Shown: positions 5,071-29,712, counted from the first letter of the stretch. The stretch: 64,000 nucleotides of DNA from Scyliorhinus canicula (GCF_902713615.1 NC_052154.1:80889072-80953071), one strand, 5' to 3'. Made by a program: numbers and translations. Notes: generated from the sequence alone by a model not told the origin.

Positions 5071-5326
5071 TGGGTGGTAGGTGGGGGAGACCCATACAGC
5101 TGGTGACACTCTGCAGAACCAGGACAGAAGGCGAAGCCTGACACAACCAAAGAGAGTGTGTTAGTCTGTTACTCTAGCTTAGTCTGGTATTGTCCCTTGT
5201 TGTCCCTGAAGACTTTGCGGAAGTTATACCTAGATTTCCTACATAGGTCAGGGTCACCTATCTTGAACGCCTCAGACCTGATCTTCAGTAGGGAGTGAAT
5301 CTTCCAGTCAAATCATGGTTTCCAGT

Positions 5327-6050
5327 TAGGGAACACATGTACTTCCGTCTTTGGCACGCAATCTTCTACACACTTACTGATCAGGTCTGTTGCGGTGGTG
5401 ACGTACTCATTTAGGTTGGCCTCCGAGTTCTTGAATATACACCAGTTCACTGACTCCAAGCAGTCAGATAAGATAACTTCCCATACAATAAGTTTCCTAA
5501 TGACTTATTTTAGTTTGCATGTAGTCACAGATGCTATTTGATAATTCACATCGCTGATTGTTTTTAGTAATGCGGTTGTGAGCTGTATTCACCAACCACT
5601 TAAATGTGTGCCCAGCAGCTATTCACATTCTGCTGTTAGTTACCACGTTCCAAAATTCTGACCCAGTAACGACCATGGAAGGGTGGTATTTTTCCAAGTC
5701 AGGATGATGTGTGACTTCAAGAAGAAACTTGAAGCGTTGCTTTTCCCATGGACCTGTTCTCATTGCCTATTTAAGTCGAATGAGTTGTGTCAATTTCTTG
5801 CAGACTTTCATTCTTCAAAACTGCAATAGTAAAGGACTAACCTTCTTAACCTCTACGTGCAAACTAAAACAAGTCATTAGGACACTTATTGTATGGGAAG
5901 TTAACTTATGTGACTGCTTGGAGTCAGTGAAATGATGTATATTCAAGAGCTCGGAGGCCAAGCTAAATGAGTATGTCACCACCACAACAGACCTCATCAG
6001 TAAGTGTGCAGAAGATTGCGTGCCAAAGACGGTAGTACATGCATTCCCTA
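5327..6050. repeat. 198-bp inverted repeat (arms 5327-5524 and 5853-6050) containing a Rex1/Babar-type LINE fragment
   Basis: The right arm is the reverse complement of the left at roughly 85-90% identity. Also present in copy B (13569-13766 / 14094-14291). Confidence 0.85.
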
Positions 6051-6139
6051 CTTAAACTCTCCTGATAAGAAAACCCTTCCATTCTGGGATCAACCGAGAG
6101 AACCTTCTATGGACTGCCTCCAGTGCCAGTGCCAGTGAG

Positions 6140-7291
6140 GTTTGCCGAAGAGCAGTGGGAGAGAGGCCATTTCTGGAGTGAGGCCACAGGGAGAGTGAGT
6201 TTTAAATGTGGGAATTTGAAGCAGAGCGGGGATTTGGTGATCAGGAAGAGATGCTCCTTGCTTTCTCTCCTTGATTTGTAACTTTTAAATCTTCAGGCAG
6301 TGGTCTTGCCCTGCTGCAGCAGGGACTGCAAGGTAATGGGCGAGATCGGTAAGTCTTTACAACTTTCATCAATTATAGTTTGAAATAGGTTTTGTGGTTG
6401 ATAATCTGTAATGGCTATAATTGCTACTGACGAAAACCAGCAAAGACGGGTCATAGATAATTGGATTTAATCTGATATCAAACATCTTCCAAAGCGTTCA
6501 TTTAAAAGGGTAAGTCACGGCAGGGGGACTCAACACCTTTGTTTGCTCCATGAGGGAGACTGAGAACATTTACAGTGCCCGGGGCCAGCGTGTGTGCAGG
6601 AAGTGTCTCCAGCTATAACTGCTGGAAGCCTGAGTTGCGGAGCTGAAGCGGCGGCTGGAGACACCGTGGAGCACCCGTGAGGTGGAGAGTATCGCGGATA
6701 ACACCTACAGAGAGGTGGTCACACCACAGGCTCAGACTCCACAGGCAGTAAAGGAATGGATTATCACCAGGCAGTGCAGGAGAGCTAGGCAGTCAGTGCC
6801 GGAATCTCCTATCGCAATTCCCCTGGAAGAGAAATATATTGTTTTGGATACTGTTGAGGGGAATGAGCTCCCAAGTGAAAGCAACAACTTCTAAATTCGT
6901 TGCACCACGTTTGGGTCTGCTGCAGAGAGAAGGAGTAAAAAGTGTGGTAATGCAATAGTTATAGGGGATTTGATTGGAAGGGGAACAGATAGTGGGTTTC
7001 TATGGCCGCAAATGACACCCCAGAAGGTATGGTGCCTCCCTGGTGGTCGGGTTAAAGATATCTTGGAGCGGTTACAGGACAGTCTGGATGGGGAGGGTGG
7101 ACAGCCAGCGGTCATGGTCGCATCGACACCAACAACATAGGTAAAAAAAATGAATGAGGTCCTGAAAACAGAATACAGGGTGTGAGGAAGAAAATTGAGA
7201 AGTCAGACCTTCAAAGTAGTAATCCCAGGATTACTACCAGTGCCAGGTGCTAGTCAGCGTTGAAATAGTAGGATATTTCAGATGAATATGT
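6140..7291 (+). mobile_element. CR1 5' part (ORF1 with zinc finger and SGNH-esterase remnant), truncated by the duplication junction
   Basis: CRKCLQL-like and AIVIGD motifs. In copy B (from about 14385) it continues into the ORF2 endonuclease up to about 17245. Confidence 0.75.
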
Positions 7292-8178: not shown

Positions 8179-11100
8179 TAACTTGAACAATTTGTGTTAG
8201 AAAGCAGTTGTACGAGAACTTCAGATCTTAAGTCCTGGCTACGTCTACGTCAGGCTGATCTAGGGTAATCAGGCTTGTCTCCCGCCTGGTAACAGTCATG
8301 TTCAAAAATGTGTTGGGTTCGCCTCTAATAGCATGTTCGACAGCATCTTTCAAAAAAAATAAAGCATTCGAGTGGTTTATCGTGATTCGAATAGTTCAAT
8401 AATTTTGACAGGGAGAATCTCCTATATAAATATGTAGATTATGTGCAATAAGACGGATGCTAACCTGAATTTGAGCTGACTGCGTGTCAATACAAGTAAT
8501 GCGAGGGTGCATTTGCAGCGCATGGTAAATATGGTAAGAAAACTTTTCAATTTGCTAGAAGCGAAAGCATAGCTCGTAAACTAAAGCACTGTGAATGAAG
8601 ATCAATCTACAGGCCAAAAAATAGATACCCAGCGCATTTGGAGGCCAAACTGAAGATCACAGAATGTTCTTAAAGAGAGAAAGAGGAAAAATGAGATGGA
8701 TAGAAAAGGAAAACGCAAATAGAAACAGTAGTATAGTCTAAAATGCAGCAATCGTTTGATATTTCCTCCTTGCTTGGTGTGTTAGCAGATACCCTCTCCA
8801 ATTATTTATTCCTACTTAGGATACCACTAACAGTCAATAAGCCTGGAAATTGAGATCGACAACTTACATTTTGCTCTCGCTAGTTCAACAGTGGAGAATC
8901 AGATTGTAAGATCCACAACATAACCAATTGGTATTTTTCTTACAGGAACCTCGTATTAAATGTACAAGATATAAGTGGCACTGTATAACTCGCCATCTAA
9001 ACAGAATTACAACAGCCAAAGTGGCTTAAAAGTAAGATAACTTGATGTTCTGCATGGCTGAGTACTGCATCTTGGAGTCGATTTGCTCACTGGGCCACCA
9101 GCTACTGAGAGAAATATTTGAATTGTATGTTTTATCGCTTGGCTAAAAAGGATGATCTGGTGCAGATCGTCAGAGTATCAAGAGCTACCGTTCTCCTTCT
9201 TTAGGTGAAAACTTTAAAAGTTGAATACAAAAATGTCATAGGGATATAATGTGTCCCGGTAATTATCAGGGTGCGTCTGTGTTAAAGTTCCTGGGTTCTT
9301 CTGAAATAACGTTCAATTTAACATTTGTCTCCCAAACTGTTAGCAATTTGTACGAGGTTGCAGGTTTACTTGACTGTAACATAACATAATTCACATGCGT
9401 GTGCTTGTATCTAACTCTGCGGTTGCAAGCTCAATGTACAAACTTTTGTTTTTGTTTGAGCCGACAGGGGAGGTAACATTTTCTCTACTAGAAGTCTCTC
9501 TGCATCTCGGCTGCATAGGCAACCATCTTACAACTAGAAATAATGCAATGTCCATTGCTCCATTGTTTGTAAATTGTAGAACTGAAGTACTGGATAATAT
9601 GGAACCCAGCCTCTTTGTTCTCAAACTTAGAACTATGTTGAGAAAGGTACATTCGCCCGAACGTCAGAATCATAAGGTAGAAAACTCTCTGAAAGTGATT
9701 CGTGTGAAATCACGAGTTTGTGATGGGTTAAGACATAGATCTAGACAGAATGTATTATAAAACTTTTGTGTCTTACAAGACGACACTCCGTTCTCATTGA
9801 CATGTGTAACATTCTCAGAAAGCATGTATTGTTTTACTGGGCATGCGCCGTATCGTTACAGGCCAGCATTGTAGCACAGTGGGTAGCACTGTTGCTTCAC
9901 AGCGCCAGGGTGCCAGGTTAAATTCCCAGCTTTCCTCACTGTCTGTGCGGAGCCCGTTCGTTCTCCACGTGGCTGCATTGGTTTCCTCCTGGTGCTCCGG
10001 TCTCCTCCCAGAAGCCCAGAAAGACGTGCTTTTAGGTAATCTGGACATTCTGAATTCTCCCTTTGTGCACCTGAACAGGCGCCGGAATGTGGCGACGAGT
10101 GTCTTTTCACAGTAGCTTCATTGCAGTGTTAATGTAAGCCTACTTTTGGCTATAAAGATTATTATTATTTGGCGTTATGTCCATTTGTGCAGCCCAGACT
10201 TGCAGTAGGTTCTCATGTGTGAGTGTTGGGCAATATTTGAGGTTCTGTTCGTGAGCTCTAACGTTTTTATTGTCTCGAAAATGCAGGGTTTTCTTTAAAG
10301 AGAAAGTGCACTCTTCTAACTTATCAATTCCGTCTCAGTGTTATGCAGGCAAATAGCTTTACATTGACTGCTGCCTTCAATCACCATTTGAAACCAGGGG
10401 CTGGTTTAGCACACTGGGCTAAGTAGCTGGCTTATAATATAGAACAAAGCCGCAGCGTAGGTTCAATTCCTGTACCAGCATCCCTGAACAGGTGCCAGAC
10501 TTGGGGCTTTTCACAGTAACTTCATTAAAGCCTACTTGTGACAATAAGTGATTATTATTTATGTATGTTAAACTGTTGCCTATTATTATTATTCAATAAG
10601 TATTTTGTTTTGCATAAAATGCAGTGCTTGGACAGCATTGGAGTTAGCATTAGAAAAATTGTTGCATCGAAAGTCGATTGAAAACAATTTTTACCATTTG
10701 AACCTAAACTTTTGACATTTGAATAATGCACAATTTACAAATTGGTGCAATTATATCAATATTAAAACATTGCAGCACCTTACATTAAGGTAACTGCTAT
10801 GATTATAACCTATGTGTGCTAATATATGCCTGTAGATGAATAAACGAAACACCCGAAAATGTATTTAAGAAAACACTTCTGCACGTGGCGTAATATTGGA
10901 AAGTGAAAGATTAGAATCAATTCATGTGCTTTAAGGTGATCCTGCTGAATATTTCATTGTTAGTGAGAACAGCAAGTTCACAATGGGAAACATGTCGAAT
11001 ATCTGTTTAATTTCAACCTTATCTGTGTCTGCAATTGCATGGAACCATGAGCCCAATAACTATTGCTACACAACACTAGATACATTTAACTGTTGCAATC

Positions 11101-14100
11101 ATTAACAACTAAATTAAAATGAGCACTTCTACTGCTGCGGTGAGCAACTGAGCACGTTCTTTGTTTAGTTGTAGAAACTTGTGTCCTTATTTCACAACAC
11201 TTGCCAATATTACAAAACATAGGAGGGACTTTCGCTCATCGTTTCCTCATCGTTTTCACTGCGCTTTGGAACGTGTCATGATTAATTACCTAGAAATATA
11301 TAGAAACCACAGGTAATATACTTATTGATGTGGCAATGTTAAGTACAGAAATGTGTGTGCCTGTTATAACTGATATTTCGTTCTGTTGGTATTTACTACA
11401 ATACACTATCACAGATAGGGTAAAACTCGAGGCAGTTTAAGCACCTTACACGTGTAATGTCAGCTCACAAAAACAACATTTGGATGTGCTGCATGTAATT
11501 TTTACATCCAAGTATTATAGCTGAATGTTGTTCAAGATATCAATGCCACTTTTCTTCTTTCTTTATGCAGCTTCACCAGCATCTGAACATGTAACAGATG
11601 ATTATCAAAACAAAATTTGAATGCAGCATTAGAAAGAGAAAAAGACTGTTGTGAAATAGGTTGTGGTAAACAATTTCCAATTTCATAAGATTTAAATAAA
11701 ATGGAATCCACTTCTTTGATAAATTGAAAACAAAAGCGTTTATTACTCTTTTGTACTTAACTGAGTAATGAAAATTAATTCCATTGGATGATTACAATAT
11801 TGAGTCAGTTTCCATGCCTGTCCTTTAAAAAATCTACGTCAGTGGGAGTCATTCAAGAATCAAATAGAGAAAGTACAGGGCCAATATGTTCCTGTAAAGG
11901 TAAAGGATGGGAACAAAACGGCCGGAGTACCCTGGATGTCAAGGGATATACAGGATTGCATAAGGAAACAAAAGGGTGGCTTATAACAGATACAGGGTGA
12001 TCAAACCAATGGATGCACTGAAGGAGTATGGGAAGTGGAGGGGGAAACTTAAAGGAATTAGGATAGCAAAGAGCGGGGCATGAAAGAACACTGGCAGACA
12101 AAATACAAGAAAATCTCAAGGTGGTTTGTAAGCATTCAATCAAGGCGTTCAAAAGGCAAACATGTGGACAGGATTGTATAGTGGGATACAGCACAACAAA
12201 GAGCTGAGGGTTTTGGCAAAGGTTGGTATCACGGCCGATACAGGCTTGGGGGGGGGGGGGGGGGGCGGGTGTCGAAGAGCCTGTTCCCATGCTGTATTGT
12301 TCTTTGTTCTTTGTTTCTTGTTCTATATGAAGGGCAAGCTGGTAACAGGGCAAGGGAAGGGTTCATTAGGGACCCAAAGTGGCAATATATATGTGTAGCC
12401 GAAAGAGGTAGGTGAGGTATTATATAGTATATTGCATCTGTGTTCATTATGGTAAAGGATGATATTGGTATTAAAAGCATGAGAGGGATTGCGATATAAT
12501 TGACTAGATTAGCTTTGGAAGGGAGGAGGTGGTAGTGGTTTTAGCGTGCCAAAAAGTGGACAGATCCCCAGGCCCAGATAAGATGTATCCTAAGCTGCTT
12601 TGTGAGGCAAGGGAGGAGATTTCAGGGTCTCTGAGGCTAATTTCCATATGCTCTCTGGCCTCAAGAGAGGTGCAAGAGGATTGGAGGGCAGCTAATGTGG
12701 TACCATTATTCAAGAAGGGAATTAGGGGAAAAACTAGAGAAATACAGGCCATTAAGTTGAACTTTAGTGGTAGGGAAAGTAGTGGAAAAATGACAGATAG
12801 ACAGCATTAATTATCACTTGGAGAGGCAAGGTTTAAAAAAGGTTAGTCGGCATGGCTTTGCCGGGGAACATGTCTGACACATCTGATGGTTGATGTACTC
12901 CATAAGGAGTCAGCAAGGCTTGTAAGATCTGCGGGAGGGGCGTTTTTTTTTGGGGGGAGGGCGGTGGACTGATCAAGAAAGTAAGAGCTGATGGGATCCA
13001 GAGAAATTATGAAGACTGGATCCAAAATTGGCTTTGTGGCCGGAGCCTGATAGCGATGGTCGAAGTGATTGGAAGCCTGTGTCTAGTGGCGCACAGCAGA
13101 TATTGGTGTTGGGTCCCTTGCTCTTTGTGGTGTACAGTAATAATCTAGATGTGAACTTGGGAGGTATGACCAATAACTGCATGGATGACACGAACATTGG
13201 CGGTGCAATAAACAGCGATGAGAAAAGCTTTGGATTACAACACGAGAGAAATGGGCTGGCCAGATGGATAGAGAACTGGCAAATGGAATTTAAACCCGAA
13301 AAGTGTGAGGAATGGGTGGTAGGTGGGGGAGACCCATACAGCTGGTGACACTCTGCAGAACCAGGACAGAAGGCGAAGCCTGACACAACCAAAGAGAGTG
13401 TGTTAGTCTGTTACTCTAGCTTAGTCTGGTATTGTCCCTTGTTGTCCCTGAAGACTTTGCGGAAGTTATACCTAGATTTCCTACATAGGTCAGGGTCACC
13501 TATCTTGAACACCTCAGACCTGATCTTCAGTAGGGAGTGAATCTTCCAGTCAAATCATGGTTTCCAGTTAGGGAATACATGTACTTCCATCTTTGACACG
13601 CAATCTTCTACACACTTACTGATCAGGTCTGTTGCGGTGGTGACGTACTCATTTAGGTTGGCCTCCGAGTTCTTGAATATACACCAGTTCACTGACTCCA
13701 AGCAGTCACATAAGATAACTTCCCATACAATAAGTTTCCTAATGACTTATTTTAGTTTGCATGTAGTCACAGATGCTATTTAATATTCACATCGCTGATT
13801 GTTTTTAATAATGTGGTTGTGAGCTGTATTCACCAACCACTTAAATGTGTGCCCAGCAGCTATTCACATTCTGCTGCTAGTTACCACGTTCCAAAATTTT
13901 GACCCAGTAACGGCCATGGAAGGGTGGTATTTTTCCAAGTCAGGATGATGTGTGACTTCAAGAAGAAACTTGAAGCGTTGATTTTCCCATGGACCTGTTC
14001 TCGTTGCCTATTTAAGTCGAATGAGTTGTGTCAATTTCTTGCAGACTTTCATTCTTCAAAACTGCAATAGTAAAGGACTAACCTTCTTAACCTCTACGTG

Positions 14101-16819
14101 CAAACTAAAACAAGTCATTAGGACACTTACTGTATGGGAAGTTAACTTATGTGACTGCTTGGAGTCAGTGAAATGATGTATATTCAAGAGCTCGGAGGCC
14201 AAGCTAAATGAGTATGTCACCACCACAACAGACCTCATCAGTAAGTGTGCAGAAGATTGCGTGCCAAAGACGGTAGTACATGCATTCCCTACTTAAACTC
14301 TCCTGATAAGAAAACCCTTCCATTCTGGGATCAACCGAGAGAACCTTCTATGGACTGCCTCCAGTGCCAGTGCCAGTGAGGTTTGCCGAAGAGCAGTGGG
14401 AGAGAGGCCATCTCTGGAGTGAGGCCACAGGGAGAGTGAGTTTTAAATGTGGGAATTTGAAGCAGAGTGGGGATTTGGTGATCAGGAAGAGATGCTCCTT
14501 GCTTTCTCTCCTTGATTTGTAACTTTTAAATCTTCAGGCAGTGGTCTTGCCCTGCTGCAGCAGGGACTGCAAGGTAATGGGCGAGATCGGTAAGTCTTTA
14601 CAACTTTCATCAATTATAGTTTGAAATAGGTTTTGTGGTTGGTAATCTGTAATGGCTATAATTGCTACTGACGAAAACCAGCAAAGACGGGTCATAGATA
14701 ATTGGATTTAATCTGATATCAAACATCTTCCAAAGCGTTCATTTAAAAGGGTAAGTCACGGCAGGGGGACTCAACACCTTTGTTTGCTCCATGAGGGAGA
14801 CTGAGAACATTTACAGTGCCTGGGGCCAGCGTGTGTGCAGGAAGTGTCTCCAGCTATAACTGCTGGAAGCCTGAGTTGCGGAGCTGAAGCGGCGGCTGGA
14901 GACACCGTGGAGCACCCGTGAGGTGGAGAGTATCGCGGATAACACCTACAGAGAGGTGGTCACACCACAGGCTCAGACTCCACAGGCAGGAAAGGAATGG
15001 ATTATCACCAGGCAGTGCAGGAGAGCTAGGCAGTCAGTGCCGGAATCTCCTATCGCAATTCCCCTGGAAGAGAAATATATTGTTTTGGATACTGTTGAGG
15101 GGAATGAGCTCCCAAGTGAAAGCAACAACTTCTAAATTCGTTGCACCACGGTTGGGTCTGCTGCAGAGAGAAGGAGTAAAAAGTGTGGTAATGCAATAGT
15201 TATAGGGGATTTGATTGGAAGGGGAACAGATAGTGGGTTTCTATGGCCGCAAATGACACTCCAGAAGGTATGGTGCCTCCCTGGTGGTCGGGTTAAAGAT
15301 ATCTTGGAGCGGTTACAGGACAGTCTGGATGGGGAGAGTGGACAGCCAGCGGTCATGGTCGCATCGACACCAACAACATAGGGAAAAAAAATGAATGAGG
15401 TCCTGAAAACAGAATACAGGGTGTGAGGAAGAAAATTGAGAAGTCAGACCTTCAAAGTAGTAATCCCAGGATTACTACCAGTGCTAGGTGCTAGTCAGCG
15501 TTGAAATAGTAGGATATTTCAGATGAATATGTGGTTGAAGAAATGGTGTGTGTGTGGGGGTGGGGGGGTGGGGGGAGATTTCAGATTCCTGGGTCTTTGG
15601 AACTGGTTCTGGGGAAGGTGGGACCTCCTCTGCAAACTGGGCAGGACCGGGACTTATACCCTTGGGGACAGGGCGTGGGCTGGTACTTGCTGGAGCGATT
15701 GAAGAGTATTAAATGAACATGGCAGGGGAAGATAACTTCTGTAATGATTTAGAGCAGGGACAATCAAGAACAAAAGAAAAGACAGAAATGAGAATAAGAA
15801 AAGTGATTGGCAGAGAAGTCAAAGGCCTGTATCAGATAATGACACTGTAAAAGAATTGGAGGGACGGTACAAGGAATTGTAAAATTACTAGCCTTAAGGT
15901 TTTGTACCTGAACGCATGGAGTATTCAAAATAAAATGGATGAGTTACTTGTGCAGATCAATTTCAAGGGATATCATATCGTTAGAATAACGGAGAGATCT
16001 CTCGTGACCAAGGATGGGAAGATTGAGGACTACAGTTTTTAGGAGATCAGGCAGAAAAGAAAAGCTGGAGGAGGAGTTACATTGTTGATTAAAGAAGATA
16101 TGGATACAATATTGAGGGAAGATATTGTGATGTTCTCTGTTGGGTCTATCAGGATGCTTTGAGAACGTAGTGCTAACAAAGAACGTCAATCTGAGTTATT
16201 GAACAAAGCTGATTTATTTACATCACTAAATTAAAGATTCTAGCTCGTCAACAAGCAATAAGTTCGGAAATAAAACAATACAAAATCTCTTCCAACAGAA
16301 CTCGATGCTATGCACCTAATCTCTCTACCGCCTTACAACCTTCTCCCAGCATCCCGGGAGTCACATGATATTGATACGGTTGCTCCTTTTCTACATCTGG
16401 TGGTGAGAAGTATTATTATCTTATTGTTAACACTTTGCATTCCTTACAATACACATTTTATTACAATATTTGTAGAGATGATGTGGAATCTGTCTGGATC
16501 GAGTTAAGAAACATCAAGTGGCAAACAACATTCGCAGGGGTGGTGTACCAACCACGAGAACGCAGTGGTAATGTTGGGAAAAGCATAGATAGGAAATCAG
16601 AAATGCATGTGATAACAGAACATCTGTGAATATGGGTGACTTCATTCTGCATATAGATTGGGTGACTCAAATTAATCACAGTACAATAAAGGAGGAATTT
16701 CTGCACTGTATACGGGATTTACTGGACCAGTATGTTGAGGAACCAAAAAGGGAACAGGCCATCTTGGACTGTGTGTTGTGCAATCAGAACGGATTAGTTA
16801 GCAACCTATTTCTGAAAGA

Positions 16820-17995: not shown

Positions 17996-18452
17996 ATGTC
18001 AATTAACCCATCAATTGGTTGAGCCGCAAGGGCCACATCCGGCTCCCTCTTGAACAACAAACTGGCCCCAACAGCTTTCTGTGGCAGAGAATTCCACAAG
18101 TTCACAAGTTTTTGAGAAACGATGTTCTTCCTCATCTCAGCCCTGAATGTCTCACCTCTTATTCTAAGGCTGTGACCCCCTAGTTCTTTTCCATCATCGG
18201 GGATCTTCTTGCAGCATCTGGCCTATCCAGTTCCACCAGGATCTTATATGTTAACATGAGATCCCCTCTCATTCTTTTAAACTCCAATGAATACAAGCCC
18301 AGTCGCTCGGGTTTTTCTCTATATGTCAGTCCTGCATTCCTGGCAATTAGTCTGGTGAACTGGTGGACTGATAGAAATGAGGCTATGACAGGTGAGGACC
18401 TTGAGAGGATTGTTATAACTAAGGAGGTAGTGATGGGCAAGCTAATGGGGCT

Positions 18453-19404
18453 TGTAGCCATGCTGGCCACGCAAAATGGACACTGAGCCAAACTAAAATG
18501 GAAGGCTGCTGGGAAACAGACAGTTCAGCCAGAACAGCAGTCTGCAAAGAGCAGTTTGCATTCTGCAGCAGCAGAAACCAGTTTGGGCTCAGGTAAAGAG
18601 ACCTTAGCTAGGTGCAAATGGCAAAACGCTTTGCATGCTAATGAGGCCATCAGACTTGAACACCCACACAATAGATACATTTGGTTCTGAATGGACACAT
18701 TCCAATCAAGACCCAGACATCGAGGCACCAGAAACCTCCGAACAAAAGGACATAAGAAACGCCCCCTCCATCACGGAGACCCCCTCGCATTGGGGAATTA
18801 ATCCAGTATCGATAAGAAATTGATCCAATAGGTAGAGCCCGCCCGAGAAGAGGGAAGGACAACGGAACCCCTATAAAAGATAGGGACCTCGTGTTGTCCG
18901 GTCTGTTAAACCTGTGCTCCGGCCTCGACTGACACCTGGTATCCTGACTCCAGCCGTTGAGCACCAGCCGCCGAAACCGTAAGTTCAACGCTCGCTACGC
19001 GATCCAAGCCCGCTAGACTCCCAAGTGCCAGAACGCTTGCTGAAGGCTGCAGACAAAACCAGGACGAAGGCCTCGTTCTCTGACCTTGCCTGTTCCTGTT
19101 AGATAAGTATTCTGTTTGCTTATGTTTAGTTGTAGCTTAGTCTCTTAGTGTGTGTGCATGAGTATTTATTATTAACTGTATAATAAATATTGATCGTTTG
19201 AACTTGACTAATCGGTGTATCGTCTTTATTACTTTGAATTTGACCTTGGAATACTTGTGACGTTGCCTATACGGCAGCTGGCGACTCCAGAGCTTAAATA
19301 ATTACATAGAACAGAGCCTAGCAGTGTTAAGCACACGTCGAACTCGGAGGCGTGTTAATACACTCCAATAAACGCGTTTTACGCCCATAGTAAAACGTGC
19401 AACA
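18453..19404 (+). repeat. 5' LTR (952 bp)
   Basis: tgtagcca...gtgcaaca. TATAAAA at 18872-18878, AATAAA at 19182 and 19367. Constant 8,856-bp offset to the 3' LTR; no difference seen by eye. Confidence 0.97.
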
Positions 19405-19409
19405 TTTAG

Positions 19410-19427
19410 TGGCGACTCTGATGGGAT
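19410..19427 (+). promoter_or_regulatory. Primer-binding site, tRNA-Ser(GCU)-like
   Basis: TGGCGACTCTGATGGGAT, 5 nt after the LTR. It matches 15/18 to the complement of the vertebrate tRNA-Ser(GCU) 3' end as I recall it (TGGCGACGAGGATGGGAT). Confidence 0.7.
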
Positions 19428-19723
19428 CCTGTTGTAAGTGGAAACACCACAGTGTTCAGGACCCTGAAATTTGAATTAGAACTCCAAATTGCAGAGAAAG
19501 AAAGAGATCACAAGTATTCAAGGTGTTCAAAATAATAAGCGAAATTCGGAAGTGTGTTTTAGTGCATGCGTACTAACAGGGCTGTAAGGTAAAACTGAAA
19601 GCTTTTTGTTGCGACAAACTTTCGGTAGTTTTGTAATCGGAAAATAGCGTAAGCCGTACCCTTTTCACGAAACACCACCCCAGCAACCCCCTGTTCCAAA
19701 TTATAAAAAGAGAGTCAGAGGAA

Positions 19724-21471
19724 ATGGCCATGCAGGCAATGGAACGTCTGATGGATCCAGCAAAGTTTGTGGTCGCAGCGACCAGCAGCAGTAGCAGAGT
19801 AGGCCAGTGTCCCACGTGGGAGCTGGAACTCCGCAAATATCTGCAGGGAAAGGGATGGCCCCTTTGGAAAGAGTTTTGTGCAAATGAGGAGACAGGTCCC
19901 GGAAGTATAGGTCATACTTGGTGGGAGAACCTCTCTCAGATACACAAAAAGAGTTTAAGTAAAGCACGCAAGCCGATGGCGATTGTGTCCTGCTTGGCAC
20001 AGTTGCGAGGCGCAGAGGAGGTCATCAGGACGCTCCGGGCAGATTTAGAGGAAAGGAACCGAATGAGTAAGGTCGATGTCAGGGACATCGAGAAAGAAAA
20101 CCTGGATCTTAAAGGGAAGTTGGCAGAGAAGGGTAGAGAGGTGGATGATGCCCAGAGGGCTCACCAGTCTTGTCTAGCTCATCTGAACAGTTCCCAGACC
20201 CAGTATGAGAAAGCCTATCAGGACGTGCAACGTGCCGTTCTGATAAGACAGGAATCGGAGAAGCAGGTGGAGGCATTGCAGAGGCAATGCTCCGATCTCA
20301 AAGCAGCTTTGAGAGCACTCCACGCTGCAACGACCGAACAAAGACAAAGCACAGTTGACCACGCGAAATGCAGAAAACAGATTGCGGAACTGCAATCTCT
20401 GCTTTCGGTGCAGAATGGCTTCCAAAGCACCTTTGGAGCTCAGTTAGATGGGGAAAACGCCCCAGATTGGCAGGAATTAAGCGAGACAGCGCAGCGTTAT
20501 GTTCAGGGAACATGTGCGCCCGCAGCTCAGCAGAAACGACAGGCACCCCAACCCCCCACAGCTCAGATCATAACCGCACCCATGAATCCCGTAACCACAC
20601 AGAGGAAAGCCGAATCAGAAGGCGCCCAGACATAACTTACACCACCCCTTTAACAGTAACCCAGCTAAGGGACGCTTGTGAAAAGATCACTCCGTTCCTC
20701 CCCACCGCAGACCCCCACCAGTTCTTTGCTAAGGTAAAGCAGCAGGCTACCATGTACGGCCTGGATGAGAGAGAGCAGGTTAAGCTCACCGTGTTGAGCT
20801 TAGACCAGAGTGTAGTGGCAGCCCTCCCCGACCCACAGAACGTGGCAGGAGGCAGCCTAGAGGAGATGCACACTGCTATTTTAGATGCCATCGGGTACAA
20901 TAGAGGTGACCCCGTAGAAGGCTTGAATAAGTGCAGGCAGAAGAGATCTGAACACCCCACAGCATTCGCCGGAAGGCTGTGGATTCACTTCAGCGCAGTT
21001 TTCGGACAGCTAGATAGAGCGCATTTAACCCGCGAAAACATGGTTAAGTGGACGCGCACAATTATCTCACACGCAACAGAAGCAGGACAGAGCGCTTGCA
21101 ATAATTACGACCCCTCAGAAGAGGCCCATAACGAAAAATGGGTCCTCAAAAGATTGTCCCGCGCTTGGGAGCAATCGCTTCAGGCAAAAGCAAAGGTTAG
21201 ATCCCCAGAAGAGGCTCAGGCTGCTGCAGATATCCAAGCAGTCAGAGAGCACCAGAAGCCCGCATGGGTAAATGAAGGCAAGAGCAGCCCTCAACAGAAA
21301 GGACAGGAATGCTATAACTGTGGACAGTTAGGGCATTGGGCAAAAGAGTGTAATGCACCCCAGCGATCTCAGAGAGGCCAGCAGACAGGCACTCTGAACC
21401 GCAACAAAGCAAAACCCATCCACAATGTAGTAGTACAGTCAGGACCCACCAATGTGGACGAGACGAACTGA
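19724..21471 (+). CDS. gag: Gag (about 582 aa if one C is restored at 20625-20627): N-terminal domain, long coiled coil, capsid, one CCHC knuckle
   Basis: ORFs 19724-20635 and 20368-21471 join as ...ESEGA(P)DITYTT... CYNCGQLGHWAKEC at 21310-21351. Confidence 0.88.
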
Positions 21472-24400
21472 CGGTGTTCGGGCTCCCCCACTTGGGTCTG
21501 TGACACACTATGGGACTCATCAGGGAGGCCCGTAGTCACGGCAAAAGTCAAAGGGAAGCCCATAGAGTTATTGTGGGACACAGGAGGATCCCGCACCACC
21601 ATTAACTCCACAACCACGGCACACGCAGACACGTGGCCGACCACCTCCACCATCACACTTAGCGGGTTCACCGGACACTCGCAGCAGGGACATATCACAG
21701 CACCCGTAGCGATCCAGCTAGGGAACATTAGCACAAGGCACCCCGTAGTTTTAGTAAATCTTCCCCGGACAGCAGAGCACATCCTGGGGATAGATTTTAT
21801 GAACACACACAGCTTGTCGTTCGACCCAGTGAACCAGTGTGTCTGGCGAATGGCGAGATCAGACAGAGCACCAGCCACCCTCACAGTAGGAGACTACGCT
21901 AATCGGATTAGCGCAGTGGGAGAGTACTCATTCGACCTGACTACACTCCACACCGACAGACAAATTAAGGCCCTACTAAACAAACACAGGACAGCATTTG
22001 CAAGTCACCGTCATGACTGTGGCAGAATGACTGGACAAGTTCATGTTACCGGACAGGACCCCCGACCGCAAAAGCAGTATAGATTTCCCCTCGAGGCAGA
22101 GGTGGAAATAGAAAAGGTTATAGGCAGCTTGTTGGACCAAGGTGTACTGAGAACGGTAGCCTCCACCAACAATGCCCCTATTTGGCCAGTGAGGAAGCCC
22201 GATGGATCATGGCGTCTGACCATCGATTATCGGGAACTCAACAAAGTAACCCCCGCAGTAGCCCCAACGGTAGCTACTAGTCCCGAGACCATGCTCAAGC
22301 AGGGTCTCAACGCCAAGTACTTCACGGTATTGGACATCAGTAATGGATTCTGGTCAATACCATTGGCAAAAGCGTGCCAATACAAATTCGCATTCACTTT
22401 TAAAACGCAGCAGTACACGTGGACATGCCTCCCACAAGGATTCCACAATTCACCCTCCATTTTCCACCGACAGCTGGCAAGTGGATTAGAAAAATTTTCC
22501 CGACCCGATTGTCTGGTACAGTATGTAGACGACCTACTACTGCAGACAGACACAAAGGCAGAGCACATTTCGCTTCTGGCCGAACTCCTGGAACTCTTAA
22601 CTGAAATTGGCTGTAAAGTTAACCCGAAAAAGGCCCAAATATTGGAAAGTAAAGTGATGTATTTGGGATCAGTCATCACGCACGGCAAACGCGAGATCGA
22701 ATTCAAAAGAATTGATTCGATTGTCAAATTGCCCCTTCCCCAGAATGTATCAGCCCTCCGGTCGTTTTTAGGACTGGTTGGCTATTGTCGGAACCACATC
22801 GACGGATTCGCGACAAAAGCCGCCCCACTTTCAGACCTCCTTAAGAAAGGAGCCCCCTGGGAATGGCTTCCGCAGCATACAGGCGCTGTGGAAGAGTTGA
22901 AACGAGCCCTTAGTGCAGCACCCGCGCTGCTAGTCCCCGACCAACTTTCACCGTACGCAATAGAGGTAGCGAGCACCGATCTGACCCTCTCGGCCGTGTT
23001 GCTTCAGGAACGGCACGAGCAGCTAAGACCAGTGGCTTATGCCTCCCGACTGTTAGACCCAGTAGAACAAGGATTTTCGGCCTGTGAGAGGCACCTCCTT
23101 GCTGTCTTCTGGGCAGTACAGTACTTTTCCTACATAACCGGACTAAACCCCATCACCATTCTAACCGAACACACACCCACACAGCTACTACTAGACGGTC
23201 GACTGAAGGACGGTTCAGTTAGCCAGATTAGGGCAGCTAGGTGGACCCTACTTTTACAAGGACGGGACATTACAGTAAAACGGACACGCACCCACACATA
23301 CTTAGCAGACAACCTCCAATACCCCGGACAGCCCCATGACTGTGAAATTGTAGCTCCCCTGCATAACACAGGACCCTTTTTAGCCAAAACACCCCCCAGG
23401 AAGATAGGGAACCCGAAACAAAGCCCCCAGCCCACAGACACGTGTGGACCCTTGAGGATTTATGTAGACGGTTCCTCCACAGTTTTAAATGGTGAGCGTA
23501 TCACAGGATGCGGCATCTATGTAGAGGACGCGCAGGGGCGCGCTCTCGAAGAAATCGCTCTTAAGTTACCAGGTCACTTAGGCGCGCAGGCAGCAGAGCT
23601 AGCAGCCATAGCGTACATAGTGGACCACCCCGATTCTTTCCCCAGCCCAGCAGACATATATTCAGACAGCTTATATGTCTGTAACAGTTTAACAGATTTC
23701 CTGCCCCTGTGGAGGACACGAGGTTTTGTCTCCGCAGACGGAAAACCCCTTCCATCAGCCCCCTTACTCCAGCATATTTTAGCGAAAGCGAAGGACAGGA
23801 CCTTCGGCATAATAAAAGTAAGAAGCCACCATAGGTCATCACCCCCTGGGAATGTAAAGGCCGACGCGTTGGCTAAGGCAGGTTCCAGGAGAGGACACTT
23901 ATGGACCCCCCCAGCTAGCGCACCAGCTAGCGCCCCTGTGAGCGCAGTCCAAGTCTCACAGACTGATATTAAAGATCTCGTGGCAGCACAAAAACAGGAC
24001 GGAGACCTCAGGGAGGTTTTCAAGGGAAACTTTGTGCCTGCTTACGAGCACTTTAAACACGCACTGACCACACATGAGGGTGTGATCATTAAGGACCGAC
24101 TTTATGTGGTCCCACAGCAGGACAGGAACCAGATGATTGCCTTGTTCCATGACGGACACGGGCATCAGGGAATTGATGCAACAACGAGGCACCTCAGGCA
24201 ACTCTGTTGGTGGCCTAATCTCAGGAATGATGTAACGCACTACATAGAGAATTGCCTGATTTGTGCTCAGAATAACCCGGACAGGTATTCTAAGAAGGCA
24301 CAACTTCGGCATACTCGCCCAGTTGACGGCCCTTGGACAAACCTCCAGATCGACTTTATAGGTCCATTGCCCCCTTGTCGGAATGGCTATAAATACGTTC

Positions 24401-25697
24401 TGGTGGTGATAGATACCTTTACCAAGTGGGTAGAGGCATTTCCCTCACGAACAAATACAGCAAAGACAGCTGCAAAGATCCTGACCCACCACATCTTCAC
24501 GAGATGGGGTTACCCCGAAGTATCGATTCGGACCAGGGATCTCACTTTACAGGACGGGTCATGAGGAACGTCCTGACAATATTCGGAATCAAACAGAACT
24601 TCCACATTGCGTATCATCCACAGTCCAGCGGGATTGTGGAGCGCATGAATCGGACCCTAAAAACTACCCTTAGGAAAATGGTTCAAGAGAACAATTCCAC
24701 ATGGGATTCAGTGCTCCCCTTTGCACTTATGTTCATAAGGAACACTGTCTCCACATCGACAGGATACACACCACACACACTCATGACCGGACGCCCTATG
24801 AAAGGTACAGAATTCCTTTTAGGACTGGACATGACAAGCCCCGAAGTGACGGCCCTCACACATGAAAAGGCAGTTAAAGAACTAGTTGAGACTGTGAGGT
24901 CTGCACAGCTCGCAGCCGCAGTCCAGCTAGGGAAACGCCGACAGCAACGTACTGCCTGTTTCAATAAGACCGTCCACACCACAGAATTCCAGGTTGGGCA
25001 ACAGGTAATGTTATCTGTTTATAACCCCAGCAGTTTTTTGGCTCCAAAATATTCCGGTCCCTACTCAATTTCGGACAAAATTAGCCCCTCCGTGTACAGA
25101 ATAAAGTATCCTAATGGAAAGACCGCGTGGTTCCATATAAACCAGTTAAAGGCATATGGAACACAGGCCAACCATGCTCACCATGTCCTGCTGGATGCAG
25201 CAGAACACTTCACCCCGCCCACCAGAGACACTTTTCCACCATCCCCCTCACAGACCAGTTCATCCACGGACTCGCCCACGACTCCGCCCACAGACCACTA
25301 CAGACCACACCCCGAGACGCCCACAAGCTGCCACAGCAGAGACAGTAGGACAGACACTGACTCTGAAGACAGCGACACCACACAGCCATACAGCCCACAC
25401 TGCACCAACTACGACCCCGACTCCAGTGACCCCATGGAACTCACTTACCTCAAAAACCCCGAACCACCACCCGACCCCGACTACCCCGACAACACACTCG
25501 ACGCTACACAATGGCACAGGGACAATTCCTACAGACTTGTCCGCAATGACGAAAGTGACCCCCGGTCACACAACTCCAAAATAGCATGCCTGATCCACAC
25601 AAGGGTGTGGGATCCGGGAGAGCAGGACGACGCAATGTCTGACTCCCGACACGGCAACCCCTTTGTGACCCTGTTCACAGAGGCAGAATCAAAGTGA
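21472..25697 (+). CDS. pol: Pol (about 1,408 aa if one G is restored at 24506-24509): protease, RT, tether, RNase H, integrase with a long C-terminal extension
   Basis: DTG at 21577, YVDD at 22522, degenerate RNase H at about 22950-23300, second RNase H YVDGS...AAELAA...YSDS...GNVKAD at about 23450-23890, HHCC, D-D-E, GPY motif. In frame with gag after a single TGA. Confidence 0.93.
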
Positions 25698-26632
25698 GGT
25701 GTCCAGATGATGTAAGATAGGAATCGTTTGAGGGAAACGATGTCCTTTCTGATGGAACCTGCACGTATGTTTGTCTTCGTTTTATGTTTGTTTGTTTCAG
25801 GAATGTACATTGTTCAGCTGGAGGATGGACATCTTCTTTTCAGCTGACAAGATTGTGACCACCTCACATACACGTTAGTTTGTCCGCAGATACTTCTGAG
25901 AACTTCGGTTTGATTGGAGATCTTTTCCAAAGTTGTAAGGCCACACGCCAAATAGCTTGTCCGCAGATATCTCTGAGAACTTCAGGGATGTCCTCAGTTG
26001 GAGCATCTTGGCTCCCTTGGTTTTTTAGGTGCCCCTCTATTCGGCGAAATAGAGGCTGCAGGTCATGGTAAACACATTCGTACCCGTTTCTTTCCAGGTT
26101 ACTCAGGCAGTGGACAAACGGCACTGAGGACCCGCCCTGTCTGAGAACCAACCCTTGGTCAGCCAAGCTCGGGTATGGCACAGCACGCCCTACCCGGGGA
26201 TCCCATCCAACTCATACCCGTAGCGGCCCATACGCAACTCATTCGGACGTTTCTTTCCAAATTTTGTTTTCATTTTACGTTAGGTAGCCCTTCGGCCGCC
26301 ATCCCACATGCTATTTACATCCGGGAACATTCGGATGGTAAATCAGCAAAGCCTGCGAGACGGCTCGCAGAAGGAAGGATTGTTAGGTGTATGCTGGTCT
26401 TTAAATTCGCTTTTTGAAAAAAAATGAGGGGAGTCACAGGGTGTGACTTAGCCAGTCATTTTTAAGGGTCAATTGGGTTTTGAAAGACAGATGCACTAAC
26501 AAGTAAAGGTCTTAAACTGTGTATTGACAGATACTGTGCTTGATCCCAAAGGTTTCAAAGGACGAGACAGAGGTCGAAGCCAGGATTGTCAATACCGGAG
26601 GAAGAAGGAAGAGAAAGAAGAAGAACAGCAAA

Positions 26633-26986
26633 ATGATGGAAGCCCACTTATTACTATTTAATGTCATATGTATATGTGTGGAAACAAGACACGTTTCCCC
26701 CACAACCCCCACCGTAAATGTTAGTACAACAAACCCCCAGTGCTCAGCTCTGATCAGCGAGGTTCAGACCTGGTGTACTAAATTCATGACGTGGTACTCC
26801 ATGTCCTACATAATCGAATCACTGTTGGTGATTGCGATCCTCACCATCCTAGTGCAGACCCTCAGGTTGAGGAAATGGAAGAGGAGAGCCTCTCGTTCCA
26901 GCACCTCACCCATCTATAGAGTGCAATCCCCCATCTTCGGATTCCACCAAACCCCTCAACCCCTCACTGATTACAACACTCTGTAA
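26633..26986 (+). CDS. Small type-I transmembrane protein (117 aa) in the env position; FAST-fusogen-like architecture
   Basis: ATG with A at -3. Signal-like MMEAHLLLFNVICICVET, T/P-rich stalk with NVS sequon, C-x10-C, TM YIIESLLVIAILTILVQTL, RLRKWKRR, C-terminal YNTL. Confidence 0.75.
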   Translation: MMEAHLLLFNVICICVETRHVSPTTPTVNVSTTNPQCSALISEVQTWCTKFMTWYSMSYIIESLLVIAILTILVQTLRLRKWKRRASRSSTSPIYRVQSPIFGFHQTPQPLTDYNTL

Positions 26987-27298
26987 ATAAAATTCAGCCA
27001 TGTATTATATTGTTCCATACTCGACTGCCGAGTTGGGAAGTGTTATGTTGTGGTGTGAATGGTTAAGATTTTAGAGTGATTAAATGTTTAAGTTAAGGTT
27101 AATAGTGATAGGTAGAGGTTCCCAATTGTAGTAATGCATGTCCCTTTGACATAGGGCCAAGTAGAAATGTTAGTTAAATTTTTTTTCTCTTCTTCCCATA
27201 GTTTAGAACAGAGTAGAACAGGAACTGGCAAGAGGTCAGAACACAAGGAGGCAAAGTACATAGGTGATCCTTCACAATAGTATGATTGTGAGGATCAC

Positions 27299-27308
27299 AA
27301 GGAGGGAA
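27299..27308 (+). promoter_or_regulatory. Polypurine tract
   Basis: aaggagggaa directly before the 3' LTR TG. Confidence 0.85.
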
Positions 27309-28260
27309 TGTAGCCATGCTGGCCACGCAAAATGGACACTGAGCCAAACTAAAATGGAAGGCTGCTGGGAAACAGACAGTTCAGCCAGAACAGCAGTCTG
27401 CAAAGAGCAGTTTGCATTCTGCAGCAGCAGAAACCAGTTTGGGCTCAGGTAAAGAGACCTTAGCTAGGTGCAAATGGCAAAACGCTTTGCATGCTAATGA
27501 GGCCATCAGACTTGAACACCCACACAATAGATACATTTGGTTCTGAATGGACACATTCCAATCAAGACCCAGACATCGAGGCACCAGAAACCTCCGAACA
27601 AAAGGACATAAGAAACGCCCCCTCCATCACGGAGACCCCCTCGCATTGGGGAATTAATCCAGTATCGATAAGAAATTGATCCAATAGGTAGAGCCCGCCC
27701 GAGAAGAGGGAAGGACAACGGAACCCCTATAAAAGATAGGGACCTCGTGTTGTCCGGTCTGTTAAACCTGTGCTCCGGCCTCGACTGACACCTGGTATCC
27801 TGACTCCAGCCGTTGAGCACCAGCCGCCGAAACCGTAAGTTCAACGCTCGCTACGCGATCCAAGCCCGCTAGACTCCCAAGTGCCAGAACGCTTGCTGAA
27901 GGCTGCAGACAAAACCAGGACGAAGGCCTCGTTCTCTGACCTTGCCTGTTCCTGTTAGATAAGTATTCTGTTTGCTTATGTTTAGTTGTAGCTTAGTCTC
28001 TTAGTGTGTGTGCATGAGTATTTATTATTAACTGTATAATAAATATTGATCGTTTGAACTTGACTAATCGGTGTATCGTCTTTATTACTTTGAATTTGAC
28101 CTTGGAATACTTGTGACGTTGCCTATACGGCAGCTGGCGACTCCAGAGCTTAAATAATTACATAGAACAGAGCCTAGCAGTGTTAAGCACACGTCGAACT
28201 CGGAGGCGTGTTAATACACTCCAATAAACGCGTTTTACGCCCATAGTAAAACGTGCAACA
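27309..28260 (+). repeat. 3' LTR (952 bp)
   Basis: Same sequence as the 5' LTR, followed by TSD ggct. Confidence 0.97.
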
Positions 28261-28344
28261 GGCTAAAGGTAGACAAGACTCCTACCCTGATGGAATGCAT
28301 CCCAGAGTGCTAAAAGAGATGGCAAGGAAATTGCAGATGCACTA

Positions 28345-29712
28345 GTGATGATTTACCAAAGTTCACTAGACTCTGGGGTGGTCCCGGTGGATTGGAAATT
28401 AGCAAACGTGACACCACTGTTTAAAAAAGGAGGTAGGCGCAGAGCAGGAAATTATAGGCCAGTGAGCTTAACTTCGGTAGTAGGGAAGATGCTGGAATCT
28501 ACCATCAAGGAAGAAATAGCGAGGCATCTGGATGGAAATTGTCCCATTGGGCAGACGCAGCATGGGTTCATAAAGGGCAGGTCGTGCCGAACAAATTTAG
28601 TCGGATTTTTTGAGGACATTACCAGTGCAGTAGATAACGGAGAGCGAATAGATGTGGTATATCTGGATTTCCAGAAAGCCTTTGACAAAGTGCCACACAA
28701 AAGGTTGCTGAATGAGATAAAGATGCATGGCATTAAGGGTAAAGTAGTAGCATGGATAGAGGATTGGTTAATTAATAGAAAGCAAAGAGTGGGGATTAAT
28801 GGGTGTTTCTCTGGTTGGCAATCAGTAGCTAGTGGTGTCCCTCAGGGATCCGTGTTGGGCCCACAATTGTTCACAATTTACATAGATGATTTGGAGTTGG
28901 GGACCAAGGGCAATGTGTCCAAGTTTGCAGATGACACTAAGATGAGTGGTAAAGCGAAAAGTGCAGAGGATACTGGAAGTCTGCAGAGGGATTTGGATAG
29001 GTTAAGTGAATGGGCTAGGGTCTGGCAGATGGAATGCAATGTTGACAAATGTGAGGTTATCCATTTTGGTAGGAATAACAGCAAACTGGATTATTATTCA
29101 AACGACGAAATATTAAAGCATGTTGCTGTGCAGAGAGACCTGGGTGTGCTAGTGCATGAGTCACAGAAAGTTGGTTTCCAGGTGCAACAGGTGATTAAGA
29201 AGGCAAATGGAATTTTGTCCTTCATTGCTAGAGGGATAGAGTTTAAGACTAGGGAGGTTATGCTGCAATTGTATAAGGTGTTGGTGAGGCCACACCTAGA
29301 GTATTGTGTTCAGTTTTGGTCTTCTTACTTGAGAAAGGACGTACTGGCACTGGAAGGTGTGCAGAATAGATTCACTAGGTTAATCCCAGAGCTGAAGTGG
29401 TTGGATTACGAGGGGAGGTTGAGTACACTGGGACTGTACTCTTTCGAATTTAGAAGGTTGAGGGGGGATCTTATAGAAACATTTAAAATTATGAAGGGAA
29501 TAGATAGGATAGATGCAGGCAGGTTCTTTCCACTGGCGGGTGAAAGCAGAACTCGGGGACATTGCCTCAAAATAAGGGGAAGTAGATTTAGGACTGAGTA
29601 TAGGAGGAACATCTTCACCCAAAGGGTTGTGAATCTATGGAATTCCTTGCCCAGTGAAGCAGTTGAGGCTCCTTCATTAAATGTTTTTAAGGTAAAGATA
29701 GATAGTTTTTGA
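28345..29712 (+). CDS. CR1 ORF2 reverse-transcriptase/C-terminal part (455 aa open)
   Basis: NYRPVSLTSVVGK, YLDFQKAFDKVPH, GVPQGSVLGP, FADDT motifs. Confidence 0.9.
   Translation: MMIYQSSLDSGVVPVDWKLANVTPLFKKGGRRRAGNYRPVSLTSVVGKMLESTIKEEIARHLDGNCPIGQTQHGFIKGRSCRTNLVGFFEDITSAVDNGERIDVVYLDFQKAFDKVPHKRLLNEIKMHGIKGKVVAWIEDWLINRKQRVGINGCFSGWQSVASGVPQGSVLGPQLFTIYIDDLELGTKGNVSKFADDTKMSGKAKSAEDTGSLQRDLDRLSEWARVWQMECNVDKCEVIHFGRNNSKLDYYSNDEILKHVAVQRDLGVLVHESQKVGFQVQQVIKKANGILSFIARGIEFKTREVMLQLYKVLVRPHLEYCVQFWSSYLRKDVLALEGVQNRFTRLIPELKWLDYEGRLSTLGLYSFEFRRLRGDLIETFKIMKGIDRIDAGRFFPLAGESRTRGHCLKIRGSRFRTEYRRNIFTQRVVNLWNSLPSEAVEAPSLNVFKVKIDSF

Follow-up and report, generated by a model that had tools for sequence, protein, structure and literature searches.

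The genome of the catshark Scyliorhinus canicula contains, within a stretch of 64,000 nucleotides that was analysed as a whole (GCF_902713615.1, NC_052154.1:80889072-80953071; hereafter the window), an endogenous retrovirus (ERV) at positions 18453-28260. We identify it, with a probability of about 0.85, as a young proviral copy from a large family in the catshark that belongs to the deep-branching canonical ERVs (class III sensu lato, clade Huo) and has lost its env gene. By sequence comparison, the family is nearest to unnamed ERVs of frogs and coelacanth. In the place of env, between pol and the 3' long terminal repeat (LTR), lies an open reading frame (ORF), ORF3 (26633-26986), which would encode a type I membrane glycoprotein of 117 amino acids. 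All features described here are on the plus strand, and published work is cited for those parts of each source that were available to us.

The two LTRs (18453-19404 and 27309-28260), which begin with TG and end with CA, show no difference over 952 bp. They are flanked by the same 4-bp target site duplication (TSD), GGCT (18449-18452 and 28261-28264). The insertion splits the ORF2 of one long interspersed nuclear element, presumably CR1-like, whose two halves form the flanks; in translation, the reading resumes across the insertion, and the right-hand remnant (28265-29712; RVT_1, E 2.5e-33) carries on the left flank. The order between the LTRs is primer binding site (PBS), gag, pro, pol and polypurine tract (27299-27308), with protease, reverse transcriptase (RT), tether, RNase H and integrase (IN) in succession, which together with the TSD is the organization of canonical endogenous Retroviridae. 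The 5' LTR contains the putative signals TATAAA (18872) and AATAAA (19182 and 19367), and a candidate splice donor GT (18979). Zero LTR differences correspond to an age of less than 0.7 million years (Myr) at a mammalian rate or, with the shark rate adopted in Han 2015, of less than 7 Myr. The insertion thus appears young, though current activity is not provable from LTR identity. An earlier note on this DNA, made from the sequence alone, had proposed a very recent integration in a probable shark, based on apparently identical LTRs and an intact TSD; its view of both the age and the host is borne out.

The window copy has two private frame breaks, one in gag (near 20.63 kb) and one in the integrase region of pol (near 24.52 kb). 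Programmed frameshifts at these sites were rejected, since neither break is present in any of ten other copies; the source of the breaks is either mutation or assembly error. The window copy is therefore non-autonomous, without a full Gag or integrase; any movement of it would have been, or would be, in trans, provided that the breaks are neither later events nor assembly errors.

Exact patterns in the catshark genome (4.22 Gb) gave 1,585 LTR-PBS junctions and 2,421 LTR starts, spread over several subfamilies, while control patterns gave none. A protein stretch listed by NCBI under Scyliorhinus canicula is encoded in this genome without a single difference. Three sets of copies were compared. 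Ten copies chosen for similarity to the window LTR are all full length, with identical LTR pairs of their own and with ORF3; pol is uninterrupted in eight, and all have a 4-bp TSD, one of them with a mismatch. A systematic sample of 20, for which one in five was taken in sequence from the 100 junctions at the head of the list, has internal identities to the window of 81-98%. An LTR pair was found in 15 of these 20 fetched stretches, with 98.5-100% identity (two pairs being identical), an uninterrupted pol of 1,408 codons in six, and ORF3 in 16, two of them split. Finally, 14 older loci were picked by ORF3, which is equally far from the 3' end in all of them, and 13 keep gag or pol. When the RT of SnRV was used as the query, the best 12 genome loci fetched all belonged to the window family. 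Compared with the window, loci L001-L010 have LTRs that are 99.8-99.9% identical and internal regions that differ by 1.4-1.8%, values to which the selection of the set for LTR similarity applies as a bias; the contrast hints at recombination among several source elements. Some copies lie in LTR-sharing tandem arrays, such as those around 102.28-102.30 Mb and 48.30-48.39 Mb (contig C1).

The gag gene (19724-21471) would encode a protein with a coiled-coil-like N-terminal half, a helical, capsid-like region and one CCHC zinc knuckle (21310). Gag has no glycine at position 2 and hence no myristoylation signal. Its profile matched only zinc knuckles in the PDB, so that the capsid fold stays predicted; every match in an ESM Atlas scan with Gag lay under 0.9, and the structure model (pLDDT, the predicted local distance difference test, of 38) was left out of the fold search. 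In Pol, the protease (21523-21807; Pfam RVP and gag-asp_proteas) has its DTG motif at 21577, and the RT (22069-22857), recognized by Pfam, by its tree and by PDB matches, has a QYVDD motif. It is followed by the tether (22864-23259), a degenerate gypsy-type RNase H that lacks two catalytic aspartates, with IEVAS (22960) where gypsy rows have VDASA or TDASD, and with TEH in place of TDH. The second RNase H (23455-23886; Pfam RNase_H, E 6.5e-16) is complete and keeps the residues D, E, D and D in YVDGS (23461), AAELA (23590), YSDSL (23659) and KADAL (23857); RNase H activity would come from this domain. Pfam places the two domains at Pol residues 465-596 and 662-805. The integrase (24049-25157) has the HHCC and DDE motifs and a GPY/SH3 module, and it is followed by a low-complexity C-terminal extension (25158-25697) under weaker purifying selection (dN/dS, the ratio of nonsynonymous to synonymous rates, 0.19-0.52). 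Most young copies also have an open frame of 129-147 codons (25150-25584) that runs over part of the Pol tail; this frame has no Pfam match and is probably a by-product of base composition. The earlier note had also set this dual arrangement apart from ordinary gypsy elements, which the motifs confirm; the remnant at 50690-53130 that it used for comparison is, read by eye, indeed a decayed gypsy-type element with a single RNase H keeping TDAS. Ty3/gypsy (Metaviridae) membership of the provirus was ruled out by the RT trees and by the RNase H domains. A dual RNase H is common to all Retroviridae (and to Odin), and it is therefore no pointer to lokiretroviruses, the group to which the earlier note had tentatively assigned the element.

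The window Pol has its best relatives in frog, coelacanth and turtle, in proteins that bear the name NYNRIN-like (P0002-P0008) and are 35-45% identical over the whole Pol and 50-58% identical in RT. This list of hosts suggested lokiretroviruses, and membership in that group was therefore put to the test. SnRV was represented by P0020, which agrees with the SnRV row of Wang & Han, and the lokiretroviruses by P0121, which carries the Loki motif and whose cluster includes another protein matching Fusion_gly. A Pol search among longer proteins (27 matches) was useful only as the source of the loki row, and an IMG/VR scan gave a single, uninformative match of 17 residues. The window RT has the motifs PQGFHNSP and QYVDD, as in SnRV and gammaretroviruses; among the RT rows aligned by Wang & Han 2021 (PMC7947760), PFG(Y/L) is found in 24 of 24 Loki rows, whose signature also has an [IVT]YVDD-type motif, and PQG in the SnRV, foamy and gammaretrovirus rows. 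RT identity to the window is 55-58% for the frog and coelacanth elements, 48% for SnRV, 39% for P0121 and 30-35% for gypsy rows, and among PDB matches the RTs of foamy virus and murine leukemia virus rank above Ty3. In a tree of 54 RT rows, the window lies within a canonical clade of 38 rows (100/99) that excludes P0121, in a group of 11 rows with frog and coelacanth elements (92/80), and forcing the window and loki together is rejected by the approximately unbiased test (p-AU 0.022). A tree of RT plus tether with 32 rows, from which 22 near-redundant, short or long-branch rows were left out, splits loki and gypsy from all other rows at 100/98. Both trees leave the window RT out of the class I clade and put it into a grade that also contains SnRV and an ERV-L-like row.

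An env-less lokiretrovirus or Odin-like element, which would be the first from cartilaginous fish, is on these grounds highly improbable. The dual RNase H would agree with it, as would a tether and an IN that are closer to P0121 than to SnRV, IN trees that leave the window lineage and loki unseparated, and the NYNRIN-like names of the top Pol matches, the loki IN being reported as close to CGIN1 (PMC7947760). Opposed to it, besides the RT motifs, the starred support in the RT and RT-plus-tether trees and the rejected constraint, are the second RNase H, which favours SnRV (63 bits) over loki (41 bits), the lack of an F-like env and of any match between Gag and loki Gag, and the report of loki in none of six chondrichthyan genomes (PMC7947760). 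Odin membership is also unlikely, because the window is excluded from the loki side. The description of RT and IN as gypsy-like in the earlier note holds for the integrase and tether, which score nearer to loki than to SnRV, but not for the RT, which is of the canonical retroviral type.

Several observations weigh against our placement. The trees contain one lokiretrovirus row and are without foamy, class II or Odin rows, and the AU p value is moderate (0.022). The window's own clade carries no star in either tree (92/80 and 83/94). SnRV groups with class I (95/93; 100/99) and is not the sister of the window, so that neither tree supports assignment to the SnRV clade in the narrow sense. The tether scores 101 bits with loki and 51 bits with SnRV, and the IN 124 + 151 bits versus 63 + 69 bits. 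In the IN trees (48 rows, six rows lacking a full match being left out, and 33 rows; no CGIN1 row in either), the window lineage and loki fall in one unresolved group outside a starred clade of SnRV, ERV-L-like and class I rows (91/92; 99/97).

These opposite ranks of similarity, with RT and the second RNase H on one side and the tether (41.5% identical to P0121) and IN (39-45%) on the other, could be described as a mosaic, in which a canonical RT and RNase H recombined with an integrase and tether of loki type. Domain swaps have been argued for retroviral IN and RNase H (Wang & Han 2021, PMC7947760). We consider a mosaic improbable, however: canonical monophyly passes the test on the IN tree (p-AU 0.47), the domains on either side of the tether both lean to the canonical type, and the same pattern recurs in every relative from frog, coelacanth and turtle, as slow ancestral domains would be expected to show. 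The simplest reading of the sequences is a deep canonical branch that would have kept slow, ancestral tether and integrase domains.

This placement agrees with what is known of shark ERVs. SnRV-related ERVs have been described in elephant shark (Han 2015, PMC4422223), clade Huo corresponds to class III and is present in all major vertebrate lineages (Xu 2018, PMC6001957), and most chondrichthyan ERV RTs are of clade III (PMC11089739). The possibility allowed by the earlier note, that a described shark ERV family already has such a structure, is thus largely realized at the level of these groups. The window element is like the SnRV/Huo ERVs, including CmiERV lineage I, in an RT outside classes I and II, in the dual RNase H and in the presence in cartilaginous fish. 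It differs from SnRV, which is not its sister, in the lack of env, in the possession of ORF3 and in an IN that is only 29-34% identical. The definition of CmiERV lineage I includes an env, and its age is about 75 Myr (PMC4422223); it is set apart from the window family by description, not by aligned sequences. ERV3/ERVL and ERV4 are likewise outside classes I and II, and some ERV3 lines have lost env (PMC4299795). However, ERV3 and ERV4 have 5-bp TSDs and neither zinc knuckle nor GPY/F (Chong 2014, PMC4299795), and membership in them was ruled out by the 4-bp TSD, the single CCHC knuckle and the GPY motif of the window element. The same survey left SnRV-related ERVs, some with a knuckle or GPY/F, unclassified (Chong 2014, PMC4299795), and the window element fits this remainder. 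The frog, coelacanth and turtle NYNRIN-like Pol proteins share the tether motif change with the window; these relatives are known here from Pol alone, and the ORF3 homologues found are all from Scyliorhinus.

Lokiretroviruses (PMC7947760) share with the window element the dual RNase H and a similar tether and integrase, but differ in RT motifs and position in the tree and in their paramyxovirus-F-like Env, and no similarity between their Gag and the window Gag was detected. Odin, also with a dual RNase H and without env, is the sister of loki, comes from sea anemones and is likened to the window element by description (Wang & Han 2022, PMC9040795); the supplements of that paper, as far as available, contain no shark names. 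ERV-Spuma.0-Sca of the small-spotted catshark has a similar LTR length and probably the same host (Song 2023, PMC10699275). Identity with it was rejected from the first 400 bases and the annotation, in which the LTR start differs, the ORF layout is separate and an env is annotated. No description of the window family or of ORF3 was found in the literature searched, with Repbase/Dfam and most subscription papers outside that search, and a repeat name may exist.

The lack of env, correctly stated in the earlier note, extends over the family. Five small 3' ORFs of the window provirus gave no Pfam match at E ≤ 0.05; for ORF3 alone, one Pfam scan gave a sub-threshold match to TMEM156 (E 0.025). The Pfam family Fusion_gly, which matches the loki protein P0165, matched no ORF of the window, and pieces of loki or fish Env had no tblastn match in the 3' regions of 25 copies. 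No env was seen in any copy examined (10 LTR-similar, 14 older and 20 sampled), and no ORF of at least 300 codons follows pol at the 20 systematically sampled junctions. Loss of env as a secondary event is common in ERVs (PMC4299795), and its combination with a dual RNase H is ordinary for them. The family would have lost env long ago and would multiply as a retrotransposon.

What the earlier note missed is the membrane gene in the place of env. ORF3 is predicted from its sequence to consist of a signal peptide, an N-glycan sequon, an aromatic juxtamembrane stretch, a transmembrane (TM) segment, a polybasic patch and a conserved tail. The N-terminus is hydrophobic, and in older subfamilies it has a cleavage motif of small residues. 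Conserved features are the N-x-S sequon, the stretch WC..F..WYS.SY, the single TM (residues 57-75, hydropathy peak 2.06), the patch RLRKWKRR and a tail containing Tyr and Pro. About 80 nucleotides (nt) upstream, a branch-point-like motif and a splice acceptor (26525-26551; AG at 26550-26551) precede the gene; the motif is present in seven of the 14 older loci, and the homologous AG is an exon boundary in the NCBI model P0148 (locus L031). ORF3 is probably made from spliced RNA.

Comparison of ORF3 with the 14 older loci gave dN/dS values of 0.14-0.34 in all 14 pairs, at dS of 0.9-2.6, and in the seven pairs tested, bootstrap upper limits of pN/pS were 0.38-0.62. The constraint is strongest in the core (0.06-0.28 in the 12 pairs computable) and tail (0.03-0.22 in 11 pairs), and weakest in the outer N-terminal part (0.24-0.85). 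Two features speak against relying on these ratios, as the window row is part of all 14 pairs and saturation is nearly reached at synonymous sites. Since the pairs share this row and were aligned as protein, a check on DNA alone was added. Mismatches at the three codon positions of ORF3 were 218/919, 93/919 and 405/914 (0.24, 0.10 and 0.44), while two non-coding controls gave 0.16, 0.18 and 0.19, and 0.27, 0.21 and 0.17. These comparisons show purifying selection across subfamilies on two predicted parts, the membrane-proximal one and the cytoplasmic tail, and the sequence data identify ORF3, of which the catshark genome has about 5,000 candidates, as a real gene of the replicating element. 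Against its being essential in cis counts one young sampled copy that lost ORF3 through deletion; ORF3 is therefore not needed in cis.

A search of 1.84 billion representatives with ORF3 gave five matches, four from Scyliorhinus and one false match of low complexity. A profile search among longer proteins gave eight matches, all Scyliorhinus gene models. No Env was among the five or the eight, the latter coming from a weak, word-based search. In an ESM Atlas scan every match lay under 0.9, and ORF3 has no sequence match to any known accessory protein in Pfam, the ESM Atlas or the 1.84 billion representatives. In Scyliorhinus torazame, several isoforms of host genes modelled by NCBI (P0151, P0172-P0176) end in an exon of ORF3 type. 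These gene models suggest that copies lying in introns capture the splicing of host transcripts and thereby add a TM tail to host proteins.

The cycle of the family could be described as follows: RNA driven by the LTR would be translated into Gag and Gag-Pol, reverse transcription is, as the sequences show, primed by mature tRNA-Arg(UCU), and integration produces the 4-bp TSD. ORF3 would act in this cycle as the membrane partner of the capsid, its tail bringing Gag to the cell membrane, and this recruitment would serve assembly, budding or hand-over to a neighbouring cell. We prefer such an anchor as the mechanism, with a confidence somewhat short of even, because Gag is without Gly2 and selection acts on the membrane and cytoplasmic side of ORF3. 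It must be set against this that the protein, its topology and its contact with Gag are predictions.

A second possibility, held with less confidence and overlapping with the capsid anchor, is that ORF3 is a trimmed env, in which the signal peptide was joined to the membrane-proximal region, TM and tail, while the fusion ectodomain was lost and a residual job was kept. The position of env, the splice acceptor of its own, the signal peptide and the aromatic stretch before the TM point to such an origin; the searches described above, weak for the longer proteins, nevertheless brought up no Env, and no env-bearing relative of the window family was found for comparison.

Env-less elements of flies enter the oocyte by means of a short TM protein (Voichek 2025, 10.1101/2025.03.14.642691). 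ORF3 resembles this protein, sORF2 of the Drosophila MDG1 group, and the FAST (fusion-associated small transmembrane) proteins of reoviruses in being short, with a single TM and a polybasic patch, and the host of sORF2 is also an env-less LTR element. By analogy, ORF3 might be a small fusogen that passes an env-less retrovirus from cell to cell, for example from soma to germ line, although we regard this as unlikely. Its size, single TM, juxtamembrane polybasic patch and short ectodomain, in which an aromatic, weakly amphipathic stretch is conserved, agree with the hallmarks given by Voichek et al. (10.1101/2025.03.14.642691), and the family is very successful in spite of being env-less. Cleavage of the signal peptide would leave an ectodomain of about 40 residues, with a hydrophobic moment of up to 0.42, where the FAST criterion is about 30 residues that include an amphipathic motif. 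However, the N-terminal myristoylation motif MGxxxS/T is absent from all ORF3 starts seen (it is also missing in two of six fly sORF2s; 10.1101/2025.03.14.642691), the cleavable-looking signal peptide and the conserved sequon are outside the listed hallmarks, constraint is lowest in the outer ectodomain, and the ESM Atlas matches all lay under 0.9. Moreover, the element belongs to Retroviridae and not, as the MDG1 group, to Metaviridae; the list of Voichek 2025, in the part available, names Metaviridae, nackednaviruses and picornaviruses, not Retroviridae (10.1101/2025.03.14.642691). By the same analogy, a vertebrate retrovirus lineage, still multiplying in a catshark and placed on a deep branch with a tether and integrase of the type found in lokiretroviruses, might have swapped Env for a protein of 117 residues that passes capsids from cell to cell into the germ line; this would be a first in Retroviridae, and we hold it to be unlikely.

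ORF3 could also be an accessory protein that acts on surface or trafficking proteins of the host, apart from particle assembly, as do Vpu and adenovirus E3. The TM and the tail with its Tyr and Pro are the most conserved parts, and SnRV and other fish retroviruses carry accessory ORFs. We judge this role, too, to be unlikely: ORF3 matches no known accessory protein, and the need for one is less clear in a purely intracellular germ-line element.

The PBS (19410-19427) begins 5 nt past the LTR and is complementary at 18 of 18 positions to CCA plus the 3' end of a host gene for tRNA-Arg(UCU) (locus L017). A second box (19470-19485) is complementary to the anticodon arm of the spliced tRNA-Arg, with an exact match of 12 nt that none of 2000 shuffles reached and that was seen in 16 of 20 sampled copies. 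Rare copies contain, after the LTR, the entire 3' half of this tRNA in its spliced form, and tRNA-Arg(UCU) is therefore the primer. Such a continuous stretch of about 44 nt is found in the leaders of L011, L013, L015, L016 and L078, and four of six loci fetched by a tRNA pattern are elements of this kind; it is as if plus-strand synthesis had crossed the T arm to the anticodon loop, with transfer by way of the second box. Many young copies (six of ten in the LTR-similar set; loci L001-L010, L057-L076) have a PBS with an extra base. A search for a tRNA gene that fits these variants gave two genome matches, neither of them such a tRNA; the extra base is not corrected by copying of the tRNA.

At the end of gag lies an in-frame UGA with a conserved downstream context (21469-21486). 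All 11 young copies have the TGA in the pol frame, as do seven of eight loci of older subfamilies, and the 15 nt that follow it are invariant in all eight; pol has no Met ahead of the protease active site. Gag-Pol may thus be made by readthrough of the UGA, a proposal that we count among the weaker points of this account. Gammaretroviruses and epsilonretroviruses have a comparable gag-pol readthrough with UAG. Ahead of ORF3, a non-coding block (26075-26420) has a mean column identity of 82% over 14 rows, without codon periodicity, and is conserved above the silent sites of the neighbouring genes. It contains hairpins with little covariation (4 of 62 pairs) and is probably a cis-acting RNA element, a candidate for RNA export or packaging. 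Four runs presumed to be RNA (contigs) cover 30 of 30 bins without a splice joint, which is neither for nor against expression.

Elsewhere in the window, segments 1-7291 and 8251-15532 form a tandem duplication, 99.0% identical over 7.3 kb, which is either a recent segmental duplication or an assembly artefact. At 57900-64000 lies a non-LTR element; its 5' repeats are in tandem, and it has an ORF1-like frame as well as an endonuclease-RT ORF. An inverted copy of its 3' part, 84-91% identical, is found at 44389-45416.

Env-less ERVs are assumed to need gag and pol alone, and the window family has kept a selected membrane gene across subfamilies. It does so with more than 1,500 proviral junctions and LTR pairs that are 98.5-100% identical, in a group of hosts without an invading ERV order in an env-requiring survey, which, in the part available, lists no shark order (PMC10435555). 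That a canonical RT is combined with a tether and integrase resembling those of loki is relevant to the question of whether the integrase of lokiretroviruses was replaced or is the ancestral one. If it is true that ORF3 fuses cells or anchors capsids, it would be a new retroviral strategy.

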